DNA of 12,698 bases from a virus. A program made the translations under genes and the position numbers. Below the pieces are notes generated by a model that was given only the letters and a program-made list of their open reading frames with translations, did not search any database and had not been told where the DNA came from. Numbering within the stretch: the stretch's first letter is position 1; each line of letters opens with the position of its first letter. The stretch lies in the UHGV virus genome UHGV-0271890, one strand, 5' to 3'. Positions 209-6,379 of this stretch are shown one piece after another.

Positions 209-237
209 ACTATAAAGTAGTCACATCTCAGTGTCAA
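209..237 (-). promoter_or_regulatory. Candidate sigma70-type promoter, leftward
   Basis: On the minus strand: TTGACA (plus 232-237), 17-nt spacer, TATAGT (plus 209-214). Confidence 0.3.
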
Positions 238-252
238 CAACTTTATTGAAAT

Positions 253-328
253 TGGTACTGGTAGGTGGAATCGAACCACCGATGTTCCCTTATCAGGGGA
301 GTGTTATAACCTTCTTAACTATACCAGC
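253..328 (-). tRNA. tRNA-Ile (anticodon GAU)
   Basis: Minus-strand cloverleaf folded by hand: acceptor GCTGGTA/TACCAGT (G1:U72 wobble), D-stem GTTA/TAAC, anticodon loop CTGATAA, T-arm GGTGG-TTCGATT-CCACC, discriminator A, CCA encoded (plus TGG 253-255). Confidence 0.85.
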
Positions 329-329
329 T

Positions 330-406
330 TGGAGGTTCAGATGGGAATCGAACCAACATTCATAGGGTTTATGAGACCCTTGCATTACCTTATCTGCGAC
401 TGAACC
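330..406 (-). tRNA. tRNA-Met (anticodon CAU; elongator vs initiator vs Ile2-lysidine not resolvable)
   Basis: Acceptor GGTTCAG/CTGAACC perfect; anticodon stem AGGGT/ACCCT with loop CTCATAA; T-loop TTCGATT with one internal T-stem mismatch; discriminator U; CCA encoded. Confidence 0.8.
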
Positions 407-411
407 ATTTT

Positions 412-487
412 TGGTAGAAGTGGAGGGATTCGAACCCATCGCCTGTCAGATTAAAAGTCTGCCGCATCACCATTCTGCTACACTTCC
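412..487 (-). tRNA. tRNA-Lys (anticodon UUU), non-canonical T-stem
   Basis: Acceptor GGAAGTG/CACTTCT (G1:U72), D-loop AATGGTGA, anticodon loop CTTTTAA on stem GCAGA/TCTGA, T-loop TTCGAAT flanked by only 3 GC pairs (ATGGG/CCCTC has two mismatches); CCA encoded. Confidence 0.65.
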
Positions 488-491
488 ATTA

Positions 492-635
492 AATTATCTT
501 TGTAGATAAGCTACCCAGACTTGCTTAAGGTCTGTAGCGATGTGCCTTTTTGGGTTTAAATCTAGAATTTACCCTTTCACCCTTTGTGGTCGCATACTCA
601 CAGGTAAGCTTAATAACTTATCTACAAAGATAATT
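492..635. repeat. 19-bp perfect inverted repeat enclosing 106 bp
   Basis: AATTATCTTTGTAGATAAG at 492-510 is the exact reverse complement of CTTATCTACAAAGATAATT at 617-635; each arm is also a local hairpin (TTATCT-NNNN-AGATAA). Confidence 0.8.
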
Positions 636-636
636 A

Positions 637-770
637 CCAGACCGTTGTTTATCATCTTAAGTGCTACCATTACACCAACTCGACATCTGCCGAGTGAAGG
701 AATCGAACCTTCGCCTTTTCTTTACCGAGAAATAGATTGTTTAAGTTTTGCTGTAAACGGTCTTCTGTAA
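637..770 (-). ncRNA. Candidate Y-RNA-like / permuted tRNA-mimic RNA
   Basis: Minus-strand order is T-arm GAAGG-TTCGATT-CCTTC (plus 696-712), then a closed 7-bp acceptor-like hairpin ACTCGGC-AGAT-GTCGAGT (plus 678-695), then a D-arm-like GTGT-AATGGTA-GCAC (plus 661-675). All sit inside an 8-bp long-range stem (plus 639-646 with 756-763). No canonical cloverleaf is possible. Confidence 0.45.
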
Positions 771-780
771 ATTTGTTGAG

Positions 781-856
781 CCAGACCAAGTTTTAAATTT
801 TTCAAAATTAAATTGGTTTGAAATTTTAAGTATCTTGCTGTATTTGGTCTTCTGCT
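781..856 (-). ncRNA. Stem-bounded structured element, family member
   Basis: Conserved CCAGACC...GGTCTTCTG flanks with 7-bp closing stem AGACCAA/TTGGTCT (783-789 with 844-850); conserved sense-strand 5' motif CAGAAGACC-NNNT-ACAGCAA; internal AT-rich hairpin. Confidence 0.4.
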
Positions 857-915
857 CCTTTAAAGGATACTCGTAAGAACCCTTTAAGGGAGGGGCTAAA
901 TAGCCCTCTCAAAAT

Positions 916-993
916 TGGCGGTTACGAAGGGATTTGAACCCTCATCATCTCCCGTGACAGGGGAGTATTTTAACCAAATTAAACTACATAACC
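916..993 (-). tRNA. tRNA-Asp (anticodon GUC)
   Basis: Acceptor GGTTATG/CGTAACC, D-stem GTTT/AAAT, anticodon stem CTCCC/GGGAG with loop CTGTCAC, T-arm GAGGG-TTCAAAT-CCCTT, discriminator G, CCA encoded. Confidence 0.88.
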
Positions 994-998
994 TTTAT

Positions 999-1086
999 TG
1001 GTGTGCCGTGTAGGAGTCGAACCTACCGAGTCTCAATGACAAGGGATTTACAGTCCCCACCGCTACCATCTACGGGATAACGACAC
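999..1086 (-). tRNA. tRNA-Tyr (anticodon GUA), class II with long variable arm
   Basis: Acceptor GTGTCGT/ACGGCAC (one U:G), anticodon stem GGGGA/TCCCT with loop CTGTAAA, ~15-nt variable arm with GTC/GAC stem, T-arm GTAGG-TTCGACT-CCTAC, CCA encoded; 5' end and D-arm register uncertain. Confidence 0.75.
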
Positions 1087-1095
1087 ATTTAAATT

Positions 1096-1172
1096 TGGCG
1101 GTTAGTCAGGGATTCGAACCCTGTGCCATTCGCTTAACAGGCGACCGCACATACCTTATGTGCTTCCTAACC
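1096..1172 (-). tRNA. tRNA-Asn (anticodon GUU)
   Basis: D-arm GCAC-ATAAGGTAT-GTGC perfect, anticodon loop CTGTTAA, T-arm CAGGG-TTCGAAT-CCCTG, acceptor GGTTAGG/ACTAACC with 7:66 G:A mismatch, discriminator G, CCA encoded. Confidence 0.78.
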
Positions 1173-1183
1173 TTAATACATTG

Positions 1184-1250
1184 CCAGACCGTGTTTTTTT
1201 TTTTTCTTTTATCCGCAAAAAGTATTTTGTTGCTGAATACGGTCTTCTGC
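1184..1250 (-). ncRNA. Stem-bounded structured element, family member
   Basis: Closing stem AGACCGT/ACGGTCT (1186-1192 with 1239-1245) covaries with the other copies; contains a 13-nt homopolymer T-run (plus) and an internal hairpin. Confidence 0.4.
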
Positions 1251-1255
1251 AAATT

Positions 1256-1332
1256 TGGAGGCGGGTGCAGGAGTCGAACCTGCCGATACCATGCTAATGA
1301 GACATGTGAGACGCCCTTTCTCTATACCCGCA
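1256..1332 (-). tRNA. tRNA with CAU anticodon (second Met-type; possibly Ile2/lysidine or initiator)
   Basis: T-arm GCAGG-TTCGACT-CCTGC, acceptor 3' strand ACCCGCC pairing TGCGGGT (1:72 mismatch), anticodon stem CATGT/GCATG with loop CTCATTA (U37 unusual), CCA encoded; 5' boundary uncertain. Confidence 0.6.
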
Positions 1333-1343
1333 ATTCTTAATGA

Positions 1344-1417
1344 CCAGACCAAATCTCTTCTTTGTCCGATTTACCTTCAGATGAATAAGATTAAGTTTGC
1401 TGTAATTGGTCTTCTGT
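1344..1417 (-). ncRNA. Stem-bounded structured element, family member
   Basis: Closing stem AGACCAA/TTGGTCT (1346-1352 with 1406-1412); same conserved flanks; abuts the CCA end of tRNA-Glu. Confidence 0.4.
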
Positions 1418-1423
1418 CAAAAC

Positions 1424-1501
1424 TGGCGTTCCAGAAGGGATTTGAACCCTCAGATATCCACTTTGAAAGAGTGGTGACTTTACCATTTTGTCTACTGGAA
1501 C
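1424..1501 (-). tRNA. tRNA-Glu (anticodon UUC)
   Basis: Acceptor GTTCCAG/CTGGAAC perfect, anticodon stem CCACT/AGTGG perfect with loop CTTTCAA, T-arm GAGGG-TTCAAAT-CCCTT, discriminator G, CCA encoded. Confidence 0.88.
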
Positions 1502-1508
1502 ATTAATT

Positions 1509-1585
1509 TGGTCTCTGTTGGAGGACTTGAACCTCCGGCCTTACCGCCCCAAACGGAACGCTCTACCAAGCTGAGCTAAACAGAG
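1509..1585 (-). tRNA. tRNA-Pro (anticodon UGG)
   Basis: Acceptor CTCTGTT/AACAGAG perfect (C1:G72), D-arm GCTC-AGCTTGGTA-GAGC, anticodon loop TTTGGGG, T-arm GGAGG-TTCAAGT-CCTCC, CCA encoded. Confidence 0.85.
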
Positions 1586-1611: not shown

Positions 1612-1641
1612 ACTTTAACATTATTTTTTAGTGATTGTCAA
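1612..1641 (-). promoter_or_regulatory. Candidate promoter for the tRNA array
   Basis: On the minus strand: TTGACA (plus 1636-1641), 18-nt spacer, TAAAGT (plus 1612-1617), about 25 nt upstream of the tRNA-Pro 5' end. Confidence 0.45.
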
Positions 1642-1710
1642 GAACTTTTTTAAAATATTTTTCAGTATCTTAGAAAAGCTCTCGTTTCGTTTCTATGTAG
1701 AACATATTAA

Positions 1711-1745
1711 AGGGTATCAAACACATTGTCAATACCCTTTTTGAA
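1711..1745. terminator. Hairpin terminator just downstream of the vWA gene stop
   Basis: AAGGGTAT...ATACCCTT 8-bp stem, followed on the plus strand by TTTTTGAAACTTTTT and preceded by an A-run on the minus strand; direction ambiguous, possibly bidirectional. Confidence 0.45.
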
Positions 1746-1750
1746 ACTTT

Positions 1751-3166
1751 TTACCAGATGTAACGGTCAATCATTACTGCTTTGAGCATTACGCTGATTG
1801 GGTCAAACTTCTCACCACCAAGCAGAGCTTTTAAAGTGGCTGGAGAGAAACCAGATACCATTGCTACACCGTTATCCTTAACAGATACTTCGCAAGTACC
1901 ACTACGGTTTGCTAAGTACCAGAATACCAGTTGTGGCATTTCGTATCCAGCTTTTTTGTACTTACTACGAATTGCTTCAAAGTTTGTACGACCGTTAGCT
2001 CCATCAACCTGATTGAACTCCATATCGGAGAAGATGATAAGCTTACTTGGCATATCTTTCTGAGTCAAGTTGTTTCTTTTACCTGTCTCAAGAATACGGT
2101 CAAAAGCAGCTTGTAAGTTAGTTGAGCCATATTCAACGTGTCGCATCACCTGACGATGACGGTTTCGTAAATCACCACTCAGTTCGATGAAGTGAGGGTT
2201 TGTTGAATAAACCATCAACTCATTCTTAAAGCAACCTGTATTACGTTCTGCTACATACAATGCAAGTGAAACACCAATATCAAGAGCAGTAATTGAACCA
2301 AAATTCACCCAAGACATTGAGCTTGAAACATCAGACATACACAAGATGTTTTCACCCTCTGCCATCCAGTTTGGTAGTGCTTTCCACTGCTCATTAGCAA
2401 CATCTGCATTACCATGCTTAACAGATTTAATTACATCGTATGGGTAAACAGCACCAGCATTAATCTTAGTCTCACCCTTTGATAAGGACTCGATGTAAGC
2501 TTTGTAGCGTTCTCCATCTTTACGGTTAAACAGTTTTTGGTAACGTGCAGCAGCAAGTGAAGGAATCTTACTGTAGTCAATCTTACCAAACTCATTAGCA
2601 GAGATTTTTTGCTCAACTGTATCAGATAGTGCAGACAACAGTGTGCGGTACTCTTTCTCACTCAAGTTGGCAAACTTGCAGAAACGTTTTACAAACTGCT
2701 TATGACGTGGTTTGACTCGTGGTAACCACTTAGCTGCCAAACCTGCTGTTGCAGGGTCTAGTAATGCTGCTTCTAAATGTTTGAAGGCATCTGTCTCGAA
2801 ACGAGTACCTACGAAGATTTTGAAGTCATCAAAACGACCAAGTTCTGCAATCTTATCCATAATGCGAAGAACCTGTGTAGGCTCTAAAACTTTATCTTCA
2901 ATTGCTTGAAGCAAAACAGTTCTGAAGGCTTTACGCTCACCCATACCTTCTCGTACATCTCGCATGTGAAGCAAAATACGAACTGCAACATCAACATCCT
3001 CACGCAAAGCTTTGTAGAACAGGTCTGGTAAGATTTCTACATTGCTACGGCTCGAACCAGCAGATTTGTAAAAGTCTACAAGAGCAGACATTGATGAAGT
3101 ATGGTTTACAGCACCATTTTCAGTTCGACCTGCATGAAGGTGCGCATGTTTAAATAATTCGCTCAT
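1751..3166 (-). CDS. vWA (MIDAS) domain protein, 471 aa; possibly Ro60/TROVE-like or DUF2828-like
   Basis: Long ORF with RBS; MIDAS motif D-x-S-x-S (ILCMSDVSSSMS, ~nt 2300-2340) followed by predicted alpha/beta segments; N-terminal ~270 aa likely helical. Family assignment is from memory. Confidence 0.8.
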   Translation of the reverse strand: MSELFKHAHLHAGRTENGAVNHTSSMSALVDFYKSAGSSRSNVEILPDLFYKALREDVDVAVRILLHMRDVREGMGERKAFRTVLLQAIEDKVLEPTQVLRIMDKIAELGRFDDFKIFVGTRFETDAFKHLEAALLDPATAGLAAKWLPRVKPRHKQFVKRFCKFANLSEKEYRTLLSALSDTVEQKISANEFGKIDYSKIPSLAAARYQKLFNRKDGERYKAYIESLSKGETKINAGAVYPYDVIKSVKHGNADVANEQWKALPNWMAEGENILCMSDVSSSMSWVNFGSITALDIGVSLALYVAERNTGCFKNELMVYSTNPHFIELSGDLRNRHRQVMRHVEYGSTNLQAAFDRILETGKRNNLTQKDMPSKLIIFSDMEFNQVDGANGRTNFEAIRSKYKKAGYEMPQLVFWYLANRSGTCEVSVKDNGVAMVSGFSPATLKALLGGEKFDPISVMLKAVMIDRYIW

Positions 3167-3200
3167 ATTTTACTCTCTTCTCTCATTTTGTTTGTTGATG

Positions 3201-3236
3201 TGACAGACTTTAGAGCAACTTTGTAGAGTCTGTCAA
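3201..3236. promoter_or_regulatory. 9-bp perfect inverted repeat between the two minus-strand genes
   Basis: TGACAGACT ... AGTCTGTCA separated by 18 bp; candidate operator or attenuator hairpin. Confidence 0.35.
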
Positions 3237-4877: not shown

Positions 4878-5249
4878 ATGAAAGCTAAGAGTGCAAAAGA
4901 CTTTTATTGCTTCCTACAATCCTATATCAATTCCGTGCAAAATGGTGAAAGGTACAACCTTAATGATGTTATCCCAACACCTTTGACATGGAGACTCAGC
5001 AAATGGCCTGAAGAAGATATTACACCAACAAGCGAACAGTGTACCTACAAACCTGAAATCAATATTCCAGATTCTGAGAACCTATTATACCCAATGTTCC
5101 ATATTGTTGGACTTGGAAGATTCCTTATGGATATCCAGTATGTAATTGGTAAAGGTTATAAGGTTAAAGGTATTGTTGTTGGTGATGTATCTCCGCATCA
5201 CAAAGGTTATTTTAGACTAAACGCACATTTAGAGGCTAAAAAGAAATGA
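4878..5249 (+). CDS. Hypothetical protein, 123 aa, paralog of the N-terminal domain of the next gene
   Basis: ORF with AAGGA RBS; shares a conserved block with the 5246..6379 product (FMDIQYVI vs FMDLQYAI, plus shared residues around W-P-E-x-D-I and Y-K-P). Confidence 0.75.
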   Translation: MKAKSAKDFYCFLQSYINSVQNGERYNLNDVIPTPLTWRLSKWPEEDITPTSEQCTYKPEINIPDSENLLYPMFHIVGLGRFLMDIQYVIGKGYKVKGIVVGDVSPHHKGYFRLNAHLEAKKK

Positions 5250-6379
5250 TTAAAGCAAAGACTTACCCAGACTTCAAAGAGTTTGTGAAGGGCTTCGTTG
5301 CAAATGTAAAGGCTGGTAAGAGATATGATTTTAGAACATATCAGGAGGCTATTTTACCGCTTACCTATAGTTCGTATTGGCCTGAAGCTGATATTGCAGA
5401 AGTTGAGAAGTTTGACTACAAACCAGACTACAAAGTTCCATTTAGTGATGAGTTGCTTTACAGCGTTGGTGCTCAAATGAGAACTTCTGACTTCTTCATG
5501 GATTTGCAGTATGCAATCATCAATGGTAAAGATGTTGACACAATTTACTGTGAATGGTTGGCAAGAGTTAAGCCGTTCTCAATGTTGAATGCTAAGTTGA
5601 AGGATGCTATTAAGCCACCAGCAATTACTCAGCAACCAACAGGTCAAACAGTCAATGAGGGTGGCACACTTACTCTAAGCATTCTAGCAACTAACGCCAC
5701 TGGATATCAGTGGAAGAAGGATGGTGAGGACATCCCTAGTGCCAATTCTGCAACTTACACAAAACAGTCAGTAGCACCTTCTGACGCTGGTTCATACACT
5801 TGTGTTGTATCTGGAGAGGGTGGAACAAGTGTTACCTCAGATACAGCAACAGTGACTGTGAACGCACTGCCTGTGATTACACAACAACCTTCTAGCCAGA
5901 CCATCAATGAGGGTGGAAACATCAACTTGGAAGTGACTGCAACTGGTGCAACTGGTTACCAATGGAAGAAAGATGGCTCTGACATTCCTTCAGCGACAAA
6001 TGCTGCCTATAGCAAGTCTGGTGCGCTGCCAGCAGATGCAGGTTCATACACTTGCGTTGTAACAGGTGCAGGTGGTTCTGTTACTTCTAGTCCTGCAACA
6101 GTTACTGTGAATGCACTTCCAGTAATCACTCAACAGCCAACCAATCAAGAAATCACTGAAGGTGAGACATTAACACTTAACGTTGTAGCAACAGGTGCAA
6201 CAGGTTATCAGTGGAAGAAGGGTGAGGAAGTCATCCCAGACGCAACTGCTGCAACTTACATCAAAGAAGGTGCAACCGCTGCTGATGCAGGAAGCTACAC
6301 CTGTGTAGTGACTGGTGCAGGTGGCTCTGTAACATCTAATGCAGCAACAGTTACAGTTAACCCAGCAGGGGAGGCGTAA
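5246..6379 (+). CDS. Protein with N-terminal paralogous domain and three tandem Ig-like domains, 377 aa
   Basis: ATGA start/stop overlap; three ~82-85-aa repeats, each with ITQQP...EG...ATGYQWKK...DAGSYTCVV...VTVN (I-set-like Ig signature). Confidence 0.85.
   Translation: MIKAKTYPDFKEFVKGFVANVKAGKRYDFRTYQEAILPLTYSSYWPEADIAEVEKFDYKPDYKVPFSDELLYSVGAQMRTSDFFMDLQYAIINGKDVDTIYCEWLARVKPFSMLNAKLKDAIKPPAITQQPTGQTVNEGGTLTLSILATNATGYQWKKDGEDIPSANSATYTKQSVAPSDAGSYTCVVSGEGGTSVTSDTATVTVNALPVITQQPSSQTINEGGNINLEVTATGATGYQWKKDGSDIPSATNAAYSKSGALPADAGSYTCVVTGAGGSVTSSPATVTVNALPVITQQPTNQEITEGETLTLNVVATGATGYQWKKGEEVIPDATAATYIKEGATAADAGSYTCVVTGAGGSVTSNAATVTVNPAGEA
5615..6370 (+). repeat. Three tandem ~250-bp in-frame repeats encoding Ig-like domains
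   Basis: Protein-level repeats are strongly conserved while the DNA has diverged at synonymous positions. Confidence 0.8.

Follow-up and report, generated by a model that had tools for sequence, protein, structure and literature searches.

Small RNAs with a shared handle between the tRNA genes of a Felixounavirus: candidate Y-RNA-like partners of a Ro60-like protein

The virus genome UHGV-0271890 was analyzed here as one stretch of 12,698 nucleotides (hereafter the window; G+C content 38%), which is 93-95% identical over its full length to ~200 Felixounavirus genomes and is a Felixounavirus (Ounavirinae, Felix O1-type). On the minus strand of the window a gene for a 471-aa protein with a predicted Ro60-like fold is followed by an array of tRNA genes (exactly nine according to ARAGORN, at 253-1585, every one on the minus strand), and three gaps interrupt this array (488-915, 1173-1255 and 1333-1423), with conserved RNA elements inside. 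The gaps hold four paralogous small RNAs, el1 to el4, which share the minus strand with the Ro60-like gene and lie 340-1100 nt downstream of it. These RNAs were previously unannotated, and the novelty of the locus lies between the tRNAs, not in the tRNA array. The Ro60-like gene, the tRNA array and the four small RNAs probably form a composite RNA module, in which the small RNAs would be Y-RNA-like partners of the Ro60-like protein. The gene and the four small RNAs are as follows.

1751-3166, minus strand: gene of the Ro60-like protein, 471 aa (Pfam DUF2828 and DUF7788; PHROG 850, 'RNA-binding protein')
1345-1413 (1341-1419 with the outer helix UGAC/GUCA and the AGA bulge), minus strand: el1; 35.9 bits with the covariance model R1 and 19.7 bits with RF01414
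1185-1246 (1181-1252 with the outer helix UUGC/GCAA), minus strand: el2; 32.2 bits with R1 and 28.0 bits with RF01414, over the full model
782-851 (778-857 with the outer helix GAGC/GCUC), minus strand: el3; 31.7 bits with R1
638-764 (634-770 with the outer helix UUAC/GUAA), minus strand: el4; carries a YrlA-type tRNA mimic

Each small RNA carries CAGAAGACC..(U)UACAGCAA at its start and GGUCUGG at its end; three of the units are 62-70 nt long, and el4 measures 127 nt. The shared part, termed the handle, opens with AAG and a 6-bp stem, continues with (U)UACAGCAA, a variable module and an A-rich tract, and closes with the stem partner and CUG. All four RNAs have a common fold, i.e., an outer 4-bp helix, an AGA bulge, an inner helix AGACCnn/nnGGUCU and a single-stranded UACAGCAA, and the outer helices compensate between the copies (UGAC/GUCA, UUGC/GCAA, GAGC/GCUC and UUAC/GUAA). 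The outer helix and the AGA bulge are additions of this subfamily. Two other readings of the CAGAAGACC...GGUCUGG repeats were tried and rejected: a self-cleaving ribozyme (hairpin or hammerhead), since the core motifs misfit and no Rfam ribozyme matched at E<=10, and a register in which GGUCUGG...CAGAAGACC brackets tRNA cassettes, since the unit sizes were inconsistent and the elements stand alone in other phages.

The association of the handle with the gene was analyzed in 80 viral loci (38-98% protein identity) and 80 loci from bacterial genomes (33-42%), numbered with the prefix L, with the DUF2828 gene set on the plus strand. The strict descriptor (AAG, 8 nt, CAGCAA, and a perfect 6-bp partner plus UG within 230 nt) found 64 handles in the viral loci, every one on the gene strand, with 1.3 in shuffled sequences, and 15 in the bacterial-genome loci, again all on the gene strand, so that over the 160 loci 79 handles lay on the gene strand and 0 on the other. 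Their density per 10 kb was 3.7 within 500 nt upstream of the gene, 2.3 within 500 nt downstream, 0.03 at distances above 2 kb and 0 within the gene itself, and the enrichment within 500 nt was ~100-fold. When the 5' motif alone was searched, as a control in which no pairing is assumed, 77 motifs were detected on the gene strand vs 8 on the opposite strand; a perfect 6-bp partner plus UG accompanied 54 of these 77 motifs (2.8 with shuffled stems), and 39 distinct stems were represented. The covariance model (CM) R1 of the handle, which misses long-insert members, had 46 of its 47 matches on the gene strand, and in its alignment 99% of the cells pair, five of the six pairs covary and the first G-C is invariant, with 111 double changes vs 33 in shuffles. 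The handle also adjoins DUF2828 genes in loci that have no tRNA at the Rfam gathering score (L023, L037, L059, L067 and L072), and therefore it is tied to the gene and not to the tRNAs. In at least nine loci a minimal handle hairpin of 34-45 nt ends 10-15 nt before the DUF2828 start codon (among them L007 4950-4990, L012 1760-1799, L014 2855-2894, L025 4946-4989, L056 4903-4947, L032 4899-4941 and L071 4902-4943), which suggests an autoregulatory operator; the window has no minimal handle hairpin upstream of its Ro60-like gene. Sequences and folds, covariation, genomic linkage and the fold of the protein described below are shown by the analysis.

Beyond the Ounavirinae, handles were found by eye and with the descriptor, adjoining the gene, in the following named phages.

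Listeria phage A511: three handles in tandem, a strong promoter ahead, directly upstream of gp57
Mycobacterium phage LilDestine: three handles downstream of the gene, then a terminator; the middle one with a T/AS/D module (AS, acceptor stem)
Bacillus phage MrDarsey: at least five handles, one with a tRNA mimic, inside a 17-tRNA array
Staphylococcus phage S-CoN_Ph16: three handles
Campylobacter phage F352: two handles, after tRNA-Met, tRNA-Asn and tRNA-Tyr

The distance from the first G to CAGCAA is 8-10 nt throughout the family, and LilDestine adds one more compensatory change, with U-A replacing A-U just beyond the stem. The handle is a search rule usable from coliphages to mycobacteriophages. 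In two unrelated families tRNA genes stand directly upstream of the DUF2828 gene (F352, L179 1847-2296, with Met, Asn and Tyr; MrDarsey, L180 1-1852, with 17 tRNAs), and the pairing of a tRNA array with a Ro60-like gene is itself a conserved arrangement. In the A511 relative Listeria phage CKA15, three extremely abundant unannotated transcripts were reported less than 2 kb upstream of an Rsr-like gene; the Rsr-like protein was found in purified virions, and the authors guessed that the transcripts were Y RNAs (PMC12282133). These transcripts, placed only as lying less than 2 kb upstream of the gene, are a hint that the candidate handle RNAs are expressed. In A511 (L176) two further unannotated regions, 2040-2335 and 2450-3000, lie behind strong TTGACA promoters upstream of the three handles; Rfam had no match for either, and the highly abundant CKA15 transcripts may include them.

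In el4 the insert consists, in this order, of a V hairpin (717-732), a T arm (696-712), a loop-closed acceptor-like hairpin (678-695) and a D arm (661-675); it reads as a small hairpin, the perfect T arm GAAGGUUCGAUUCCUUC, the hairpin ACUCGGC-AGAU-GUCGAGU, UG, and the D arm GUGUAAUGGUAGCAC. The whole corresponds to a tRNA in which a loop closes the acceptor stem and the anticodon side leads into the handle. YrlA, the tRNA-mimicking Y RNA of Salmonella, has the order V-T-AS-D (PMC4201824), and el4 follows it exactly over 661-732. Among the Ounavirinae el4 has invariant T and D arms, while its acceptor-like stem covaries completely and occurs in three versions, ACUCGGC/GUCGAGU, ACACG/CGUGU and ACCCUUC/GAAGGGU. 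The mimic module sits on the same handle also in L006, L032, L041, L076, LilDestine and MrDarsey, as it does in the Ounavirinae, and the handle RNAs of relatives scored 38.9, 28.7 and 21.7 bits, all sub-threshold, with the Rfam model of YrlA. A circularly permuted tRNA gene or a permuted tmRNA at 638-764 was considered and rejected, given the lack of a CCA, the 6-nt anticodon-like loop, the lack of an ARAGORN tmRNA call and a covariation that fits the closed hairpin.

These observations bear on the simplest view of the locus, namely that it is an ordinary codon-compensating tRNA operon whose repeats do nothing in trans, being remnants of tRNA genes or spacers for processing or termination. The bias in usage does match the tRNA set (see below), the repeats lie within a tRNA precursor, a substrate of RNase P and RNase E, and the tRNA-like arms of el4 could belong to a pseudogene. 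However, the handle is found beside DUF2828 genes in tRNA-less loci, always on the gene strand, and spans phages of Proteobacteria, Firmicutes, Actinobacteria and Campylobacter; its stems covary while UACAGCAA stays fixed; and the el4 T and D arms have remained invariant while the acceptor-like stem was replaced three times by compensatory sequences, which indicates selection and not decay. We regard an ordinary tRNA operon as a very improbable account of the locus.

The 471-aa protein matched Pfam DUF7788 (3.6e-43) and DUF2828 (1.2e-29), and no sequence match was found in PDB or NCBIfam. An AlphaFold (AF2) model built with 34 homologues had a pLDDT of 89.4, and when it was compared with PDB by Foldseek the top 10 matches were all Ro60, Rsr or TROVE proteins (from Thermus phage phiLo, Deinococcus, Xenopus and human), with full-length alignments (~510-540 columns) and E-values of 3e-8 to 3e-6. 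The residues of the metal-ion-dependent adhesion site (D279, S281, S283, T349 and D381; DxSxS, T, D) are invariant. The protein is predicted to fold as Ro60, with a helical-repeat ring and a vWA domain. By tblastn it was found in 710 phage records, the DUF2828 family comprises more than 2500 clusters, and the mycobacteriophage homologues are annotated by SEA-PHAGES as 'Ro-like RNA binding protein'; the handle suggests that this large family acts as a ribonucleoprotein. In the neighbourhoods of two distant homologues no protein partner, RtcB for example, was seen to recur. The orthologue in phage Bas63, gp130, is Ro60-like, lies upstream of tRNA genes and counters the Ppl defence, and the authors speculated that 'some tRNA genes are possibly Y RNAs', no RNA being identified (PhageMaP preprint, PMC11482910). 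The Bas63 and CKA15 studies both saw a Ro60-like protein by tRNA genes and guessed Y RNAs; the handle supplies candidates with coordinates. The 2014 survey of YrlA was limited to genomes annotated with a TROVE protein, and DUF2828 phages were therefore probably outside it.

The locus was compared with the known Ro60-Y RNA systems, i.e., Salmonella Rsr with YrlA and YrlB, Deinococcus Rsr-Yrn1-PNPase, and phiLo Ro60 with Yrl1 and Yrl2. It shares with them a ring-plus-vWA gene accompanied on the same strand, within ~2 kb, by several small RNA genes; RNAs built of a terminal stem with a conserved motif and a variable module; one RNA with a V-T-AS-D mimic and a loop-closed acceptor stem, encoded within 4 kb of the gene and on the gene strand, as is YrlA; shorter partner RNAs without a tRNA mimic, as is YrlB; and, in the Ounavirinae, the stem-bulge-stem layout with AGAA in the bulge region. 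It differs in that the phage RNAs are interleaved with tRNA genes in one array, and in that the conserved motif of YrlA is GNCGAAN0-1G/CGAA, whereas the window has (G/U)NC-AGAAG followed by UACAGCAA and AAG/CUG ends. Non-tRNA small RNAs within a phage tRNA operon have a precedent in T4, whose tRNA operon encodes the small stable RNAs rnaC and rnaD, co-transcribed and processed with the tRNAs; to our knowledge these RNAs bear no sequence relation to the handle RNAs, and no DUF2828 gene lies beside them.

In the mechanism that we propose, the Ro60-like gene would be followed by a same-strand polycistronic array under its own strong sigma-70-type promoters, in which tRNA genes alternate with the four small RNAs. 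The tRNAs would, most likely, top up decoding for an AT-rich phage that over-uses Tyr, Lys, Asn, Glu and Asp. The small RNAs would be cut from the tRNA precursor and bound, with the handle as the protein-binding part of each, by the Ro60-like protein, so that particles analogous to Ro60-Y RNA complexes would form. In these particles el1 to el3 would correspond to YrlB, and el4 would be the counterpart of YrlA by virtue of the tRNA mimic (V, T, closed acceptor, D) that forms its variable module and could recruit tRNA-recognizing or RNA-decay/repair enzymes. The particle would probably reshape RNA turnover or quality control during infection and thereby counter host defence. This effect on turnover or defence is suggested by the analogy with Rsr-Y RNA-PNPase and phiLo Ro60-Yrl-PNPase and by the Bas63 gp130 phenotype; we infer it, as we do the RNA processing and the protein binding. 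The handle makes the anti-defence phenotype of gp130 mechanistically testable.

Handle RNAs that are real could, in principle, have a partner other than the DUF2828 protein, be it a host factor (PNPase, RNase E or an RRM-like protein) or a host nuclease for which they act as decoys, with the linkage reflecting co-regulation. There are precedents, since the Dictyostelium Class I RNA DdR-21 binds the RRM protein Rnp1A directly (PMC7919456) and the phiLo Yrl RNAs bind host PNPase on their own. However, the ~100-fold enrichment within 500 nt of the gene persists where the rest of the neighbourhood differs, the minimal handles located just before the DUF2828 start (at least nine) are as expected if the protein binds its own mRNA, and the fold of the protein is that of the only family for which the use of such RNAs is known. 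We hold a different partner to be improbable, if somewhat less so than an ordinary tRNA operon.

The nine tRNA genes are transcribed in the order Pro, Glu, CAU, Asn, Tyr, Asp, Lys, CAU, Ile, as listed here.

1509-1585, minus strand: tRNA-Pro (UGG); ARAGORN and Rfam tRNA model; CCA encoded
1424-1501, minus strand: tRNA-Glu (UUC); ARAGORN and Rfam tRNA model; CCA encoded
1256-1332, minus strand: tRNA with anticodon CAU; ARAGORN; initiator-like acceptor, with U37, U73 and a 4-bp T stem atypical
1096-1172, minus strand: tRNA-Asn (GUU); ARAGORN and Rfam tRNA model; CCA encoded
999-1086, minus strand: tRNA-Tyr (GUA); ARAGORN; long variable arm; CCA encoded
916-993, minus strand: tRNA-Asp (GUC); ARAGORN and Rfam tRNA model; CCA encoded
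412-487, minus strand: tRNA-Lys (UUU); ARAGORN and Rfam tRNA model; CCA encoded
330-406, minus strand: tRNA with anticodon CAU; ARAGORN and Rfam tRNA model; ordinary elongator-type acceptor (G1-C72); Met or Ile2
253-328, minus strand: tRNA-Ile (GAU); ARAGORN and Rfam tRNA model; CCA encoded

A previous sequence-only reading of the window had proposed nine tRNA genes at 253-1585 with an encoded CCA on all of them, among them Lys-UUU and neighbouring Asp, Tyr and Asn genes. The ARAGORN run bore this out, with a CCA after 9 of 9 genes in its register; encoded CCA is the norm among E. coli tRNA genes. The Rfam tRNA model RF00005 recognized seven of the nine genes at its gathering score and missed the Tyr gene and the CAU gene at 1256-1332, both of which rest on ARAGORN in the window; their orthologues are called by tRNAscan-SE in the record of Shigella phage Sf17. 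The same reading had also pointed to two CAU tRNAs, one of them perhaps Ile2 or an initiator. Both are present, and for the gene at 1256-1332 the initiator idea agrees with the acceptor stem and disagrees with the anticodon stem and with U73. In the 77-nt register of ARAGORN its acceptor has U1 mismatched opposite C72, followed by G2-C71, C3-G70 and G4-C69, so that GCGGG/CCCGC is like that of E. coli fMet metZ; the three initiator G-C pairs 29-31:39-41 (the stem is CAUGU/GCAUG) and A73 (it has U73) are absent, and position 37 is U. Folded alone, this tRNA takes an alternative register without a proper CCA. It may be a specialized or non-canonical tRNA; the gene is kept across the Ounavirinae.

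The tRNA part of the locus is already known as the Felix O1-type cluster. In AYO145A and in an IMG/VR relative (L003) the same locus has 25 tRNA genes for 19 amino acids, with only Trp absent, and the nine tRNAs of the window are the first block of that ~25-tRNA cluster, which the window edge cuts. Genes, order and flanking genes are as annotated in Felixounavirus, Suspvirus and Mooglevirus, and in the latter two the synteny runs from a DUF5681 gene through the DUF2828 gene to Pro-Glu-Met-Asn-Tyr-Asp-Lys-Met-Ile and then Arg onward. The public records differ in that their gaps are unannotated or filled by one probably spurious opposite-strand open reading frame (ORF), with no handle RNAs annotated; the small RNAs described here account for gaps that carry no annotation, or a wrong one, in the records of hundreds of phage genomes.

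The sequence-only reading had further claimed that the tRNA set is enriched for targets of anticodon nucleases, and that this fits the replacement of cleaved host tRNAs and not simple codon compensation. The enrichment did not hold: the full cluster has ~25 tRNAs for 19 amino acids, and Lys, Asp, Tyr and Asn appear enriched because the window ends inside it. The second part fared no better when codon usage was compared with tRNA content (4414 phage vs 2385 E. coli codons). The amino acids over-used relative to the E. coli sample were Tyr (1.56x), Phe (1.54x), Lys (1.45x), Asn (1.31x), Glu (1.25x) and Asp (1.18x), and five of these six most over-used amino acids are served by the tRNA block of the window, a match that had been named beforehand as the outcome counting against the claim. 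The cognate tRNAs of the most over-used codons, AGA, ACA, UCA and CUA, lie further down the cluster in relatives.

A kit replacing host tRNAs cut by anticodon nucleases (PrrC, PARIS, colicin-E5-like nucleases or retron effectors) is nevertheless a view with evidence on its side. The PARIS effector AriB cuts host tRNA-Lys between positions 40 and 41, T5 escapes with U39A plus A41C, of which U39A alone abolishes cleavage, and the T5 tRNAs needed to overcome PARIS are Lys, Thr and Asn (PMC12409363). Two of these three, Lys-UUU and Asn-GUU, are in the window, and Thr-UGU lies further down the cluster in relatives; as in T5, they belong to a large array in a lytic coliphage and differ from the host in the stem close to where AriB cuts. 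At the positions that matter to AriB, the phage tRNA-Lys keeps U39 and C40 and has U instead of A at 41, and the phage tRNA-Asn has G39 C40 G41 vs U39 C40 C41 in the host, i.e., it is changed at 39 and 41. The PhageMaP authors, moreover, see the Bas63 tRNAs as a conditionally useful toolbox (PMC11482910). Against a nuclease kit, the composition of the set follows from the window end, the tRNAs serve amino acids that the phage over-uses, and tRNA-Lys, in contrast to that of T5, retains U39, a position at which a single change was enough to stop cleavage by AriB. Identity with the E. coli K-12 counterparts was 61-72% for five phage tRNAs (Lys, Tyr, Asn, Asp and Ile), and their anticodon loops are the same as the host's in 7 of 7 nt in all five, so that no sign of the loop-mutation evasion known from other phages was found in this comparison. 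The anticodon-stem differences are compatible with evasion, but are equally expected, by drift, of any tRNA 61-72% identical to that of the host. A nuclease kit is, in our judgement, unlikely. A counter-defence role of the locus is still plausible, but it rests on the adjoining Ro60-like gene, whose Bas63 orthologue counters Ppl.

Several points weigh against the proposal of a Ro60-like protein with Y-RNA-like partners. The protein-RNA partnership rests on linkage and analogy. The protein is of the DUF2828/DUF7788 type and not TROVE, with no Pfam TROVE sequence match, and its match to Ro60 is one of fold only (TM 0.41-0.63, 12-17% identity). The Rfam model of YrlA (RF02553) does not recognize el4, with no match at E<=10 and a gathering score of 69 bits. 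The strict handle is present in about one third of the DUF2828 loci (53 of 160 with a slightly relaxed lead) and is rare among Clostridia-type homologues, and a looser descriptor (a 7-bp stem before any CAGCAA) was noisy, with 45% vs a background of 18%. The covariation in the CM alignment is partly circular, the seeds having been picked by a descriptor that demands pairing; the 5'-motif test is the independent control. With regard to the tRNAs, the codon comparison rests on small samples, and the Bas63 tRNAs were mostly dispensable on four laboratory strains (PMC11482910), so that their benefit would be conditional. With these points counted, we still consider the composite module with Y-RNA-like partners to be the probable reading.

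In permissive Rfam scans of handle RNAs of four unrelated phages, RF01414, the Class I RNA family of Dictyostelium, repeatedly came first among the non-tRNA families. Besides el2 (28.0 bits) and el1 (19.7 bits), a Micavibrio metagenome-assembled genome (MAG; L119) gave 28.1 bits, A511 gave 23.1 and LilDestine 18.9; all these scores are below the gathering score of 41.5, and at Rfam gathering scores no member of Class I or of YrlA was found in 13 related loci. Class I RNAs, as defined, run from AAG to CUGU, have a terminal stem of 6 bp in which the 5' G is invariant, contain the motif CCUUACAGCAA and a middle part that varies, and are ~60 nt long and low in G+C (PMC7919456). The D. discoideum sequences read GUUGAC-CUUA-CAGCAA...AAAACC..GUCAAC-UG. 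The handle RNAs have the same 5' AAG, the same 6-bp terminal stem with an invariant first G that pairs with the C of the 3' CUG, UUACAGCAA right after the 5' strand, then a middle part that varies and, ahead of the 3' strand, an A-rich/C tract, and they too are of ~60 nt and low G+C with occasional long-insert members. In the 11-nt motif CCUUACAGCAA, of which U3, C6, C9, A10 and A11 are near-invariant, C6, C9, A10 and A11 are present in four of four window elements; U3 is present in el1 and el4, is A in el3 and is alignment-dependent in el2. The differences are the distance from G to CAGCAA (10 nt in Dictyostelium, 9 nt in the window), the promoters (a DUSE element ~60 nt upstream in a dictyostelid genome vs sigma-70-type promoters in a phage) and the partner, the only proven one there being an RRM protein.

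Class I RNAs have been reported absent outside Dictyostelia (Kjellin et al. 2021, PMC7919456). Full-text literature on DUF2828, PF11443, UCP015417 and related terms returned plant papers only, and a motif search for a DUF2828-type protein in a partial Dictyostelium proteome (a paper supplement) gave nothing relevant. That phage handle RNAs and dictyostelid Class I RNAs are one family, with the DUF2828/DUF7788 Ro60-like protein, which to judge by the plant papers exists in eukaryotes too, as the cognate partner, is a tentative and rather doubtful idea, and the resemblance is a lead, not a finding. Should it come from common descent or from a protein partner that both share, it would open up an old puzzle of a eukaryotic model organism. 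If true, it would mean a second Ro60/Y-RNA-like ribonucleoprotein system common to phages, bacteria and eukaryotes, and a testable biochemical partner for the 20-year-old orphan Class I RNAs.

The remaining features of the window are the following.

3207-3236, minus strand: sigma-70-like promoter TTGACA-18-TAAAGT, upstream of the Ro60-like gene
1612-1740, minus strand: two sigma-70-like promoters (1732-1704 and 1641-1612) and a 12-bp hairpin (1740-1709), between the Ro60-like gene and tRNA-Pro
857-910, minus strand: two hairpins (890-910 and 857-889) found by folding, between tRNA-Asp and el3
490-636, minus strand: 147-nt RNA with a perfect closing stem of ~24 bp, a fold z-score of -5.6 and internal hairpins
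209-237, minus strand: sigma-70-like promoter TTGACA-17-TATAGT, leading into the next cluster block beyond the window

The promoters on both sides of the Ro60-like gene are embedded in inverted repeats, i.e., the hairpin 1740-1709 and GACAGACU/AGUCUGUC around 3236-3207 (region 3200-3236); these pairs may be terminator/promoter or operator combinations. The 147-nt RNA carries a handle-like mini hairpin, CAGACC-UUAAGCAA-GUCUG, at 516-534, and is kept only in Felixounavirus. Among six relatives its stem showed no covariation, their sequences being nearly identical, and a mobile element resembling a miniature inverted-repeat transposable element was rejected as a source of the inverted repeat, which is single copy in all loci. 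An RNase III site and a fifth partner RNA are two possible roles of this element. A 76-aa ORF at 540-770 (plus strand) overlaps both el4 and the long-stem RNA; it equals AYO145A gp131 in RefSeq (L081 6451-6708) and is probably a spurious coding sequence.

Other RNAs were observed near DUF2828 genes elsewhere. In the Micavibrio MAG (L119 1007-1068, plus strand) the Rfam family 'freshwater-1' matched with 82.7 bits (gathering score 72), between tRNAs and handle RNAs and just upstream of the DUF2828 gene. Group I intron matches lie by tRNA genes in L022 (10696-10922; 71.5 bits, above gathering) and L068 (3253-3443; 40.9 bits). On the plus strand of the window, 5246-6379 encodes a 377-aa protein with three immunoglobulin-like domains, which is annotated as 'tail protein' in relatives.

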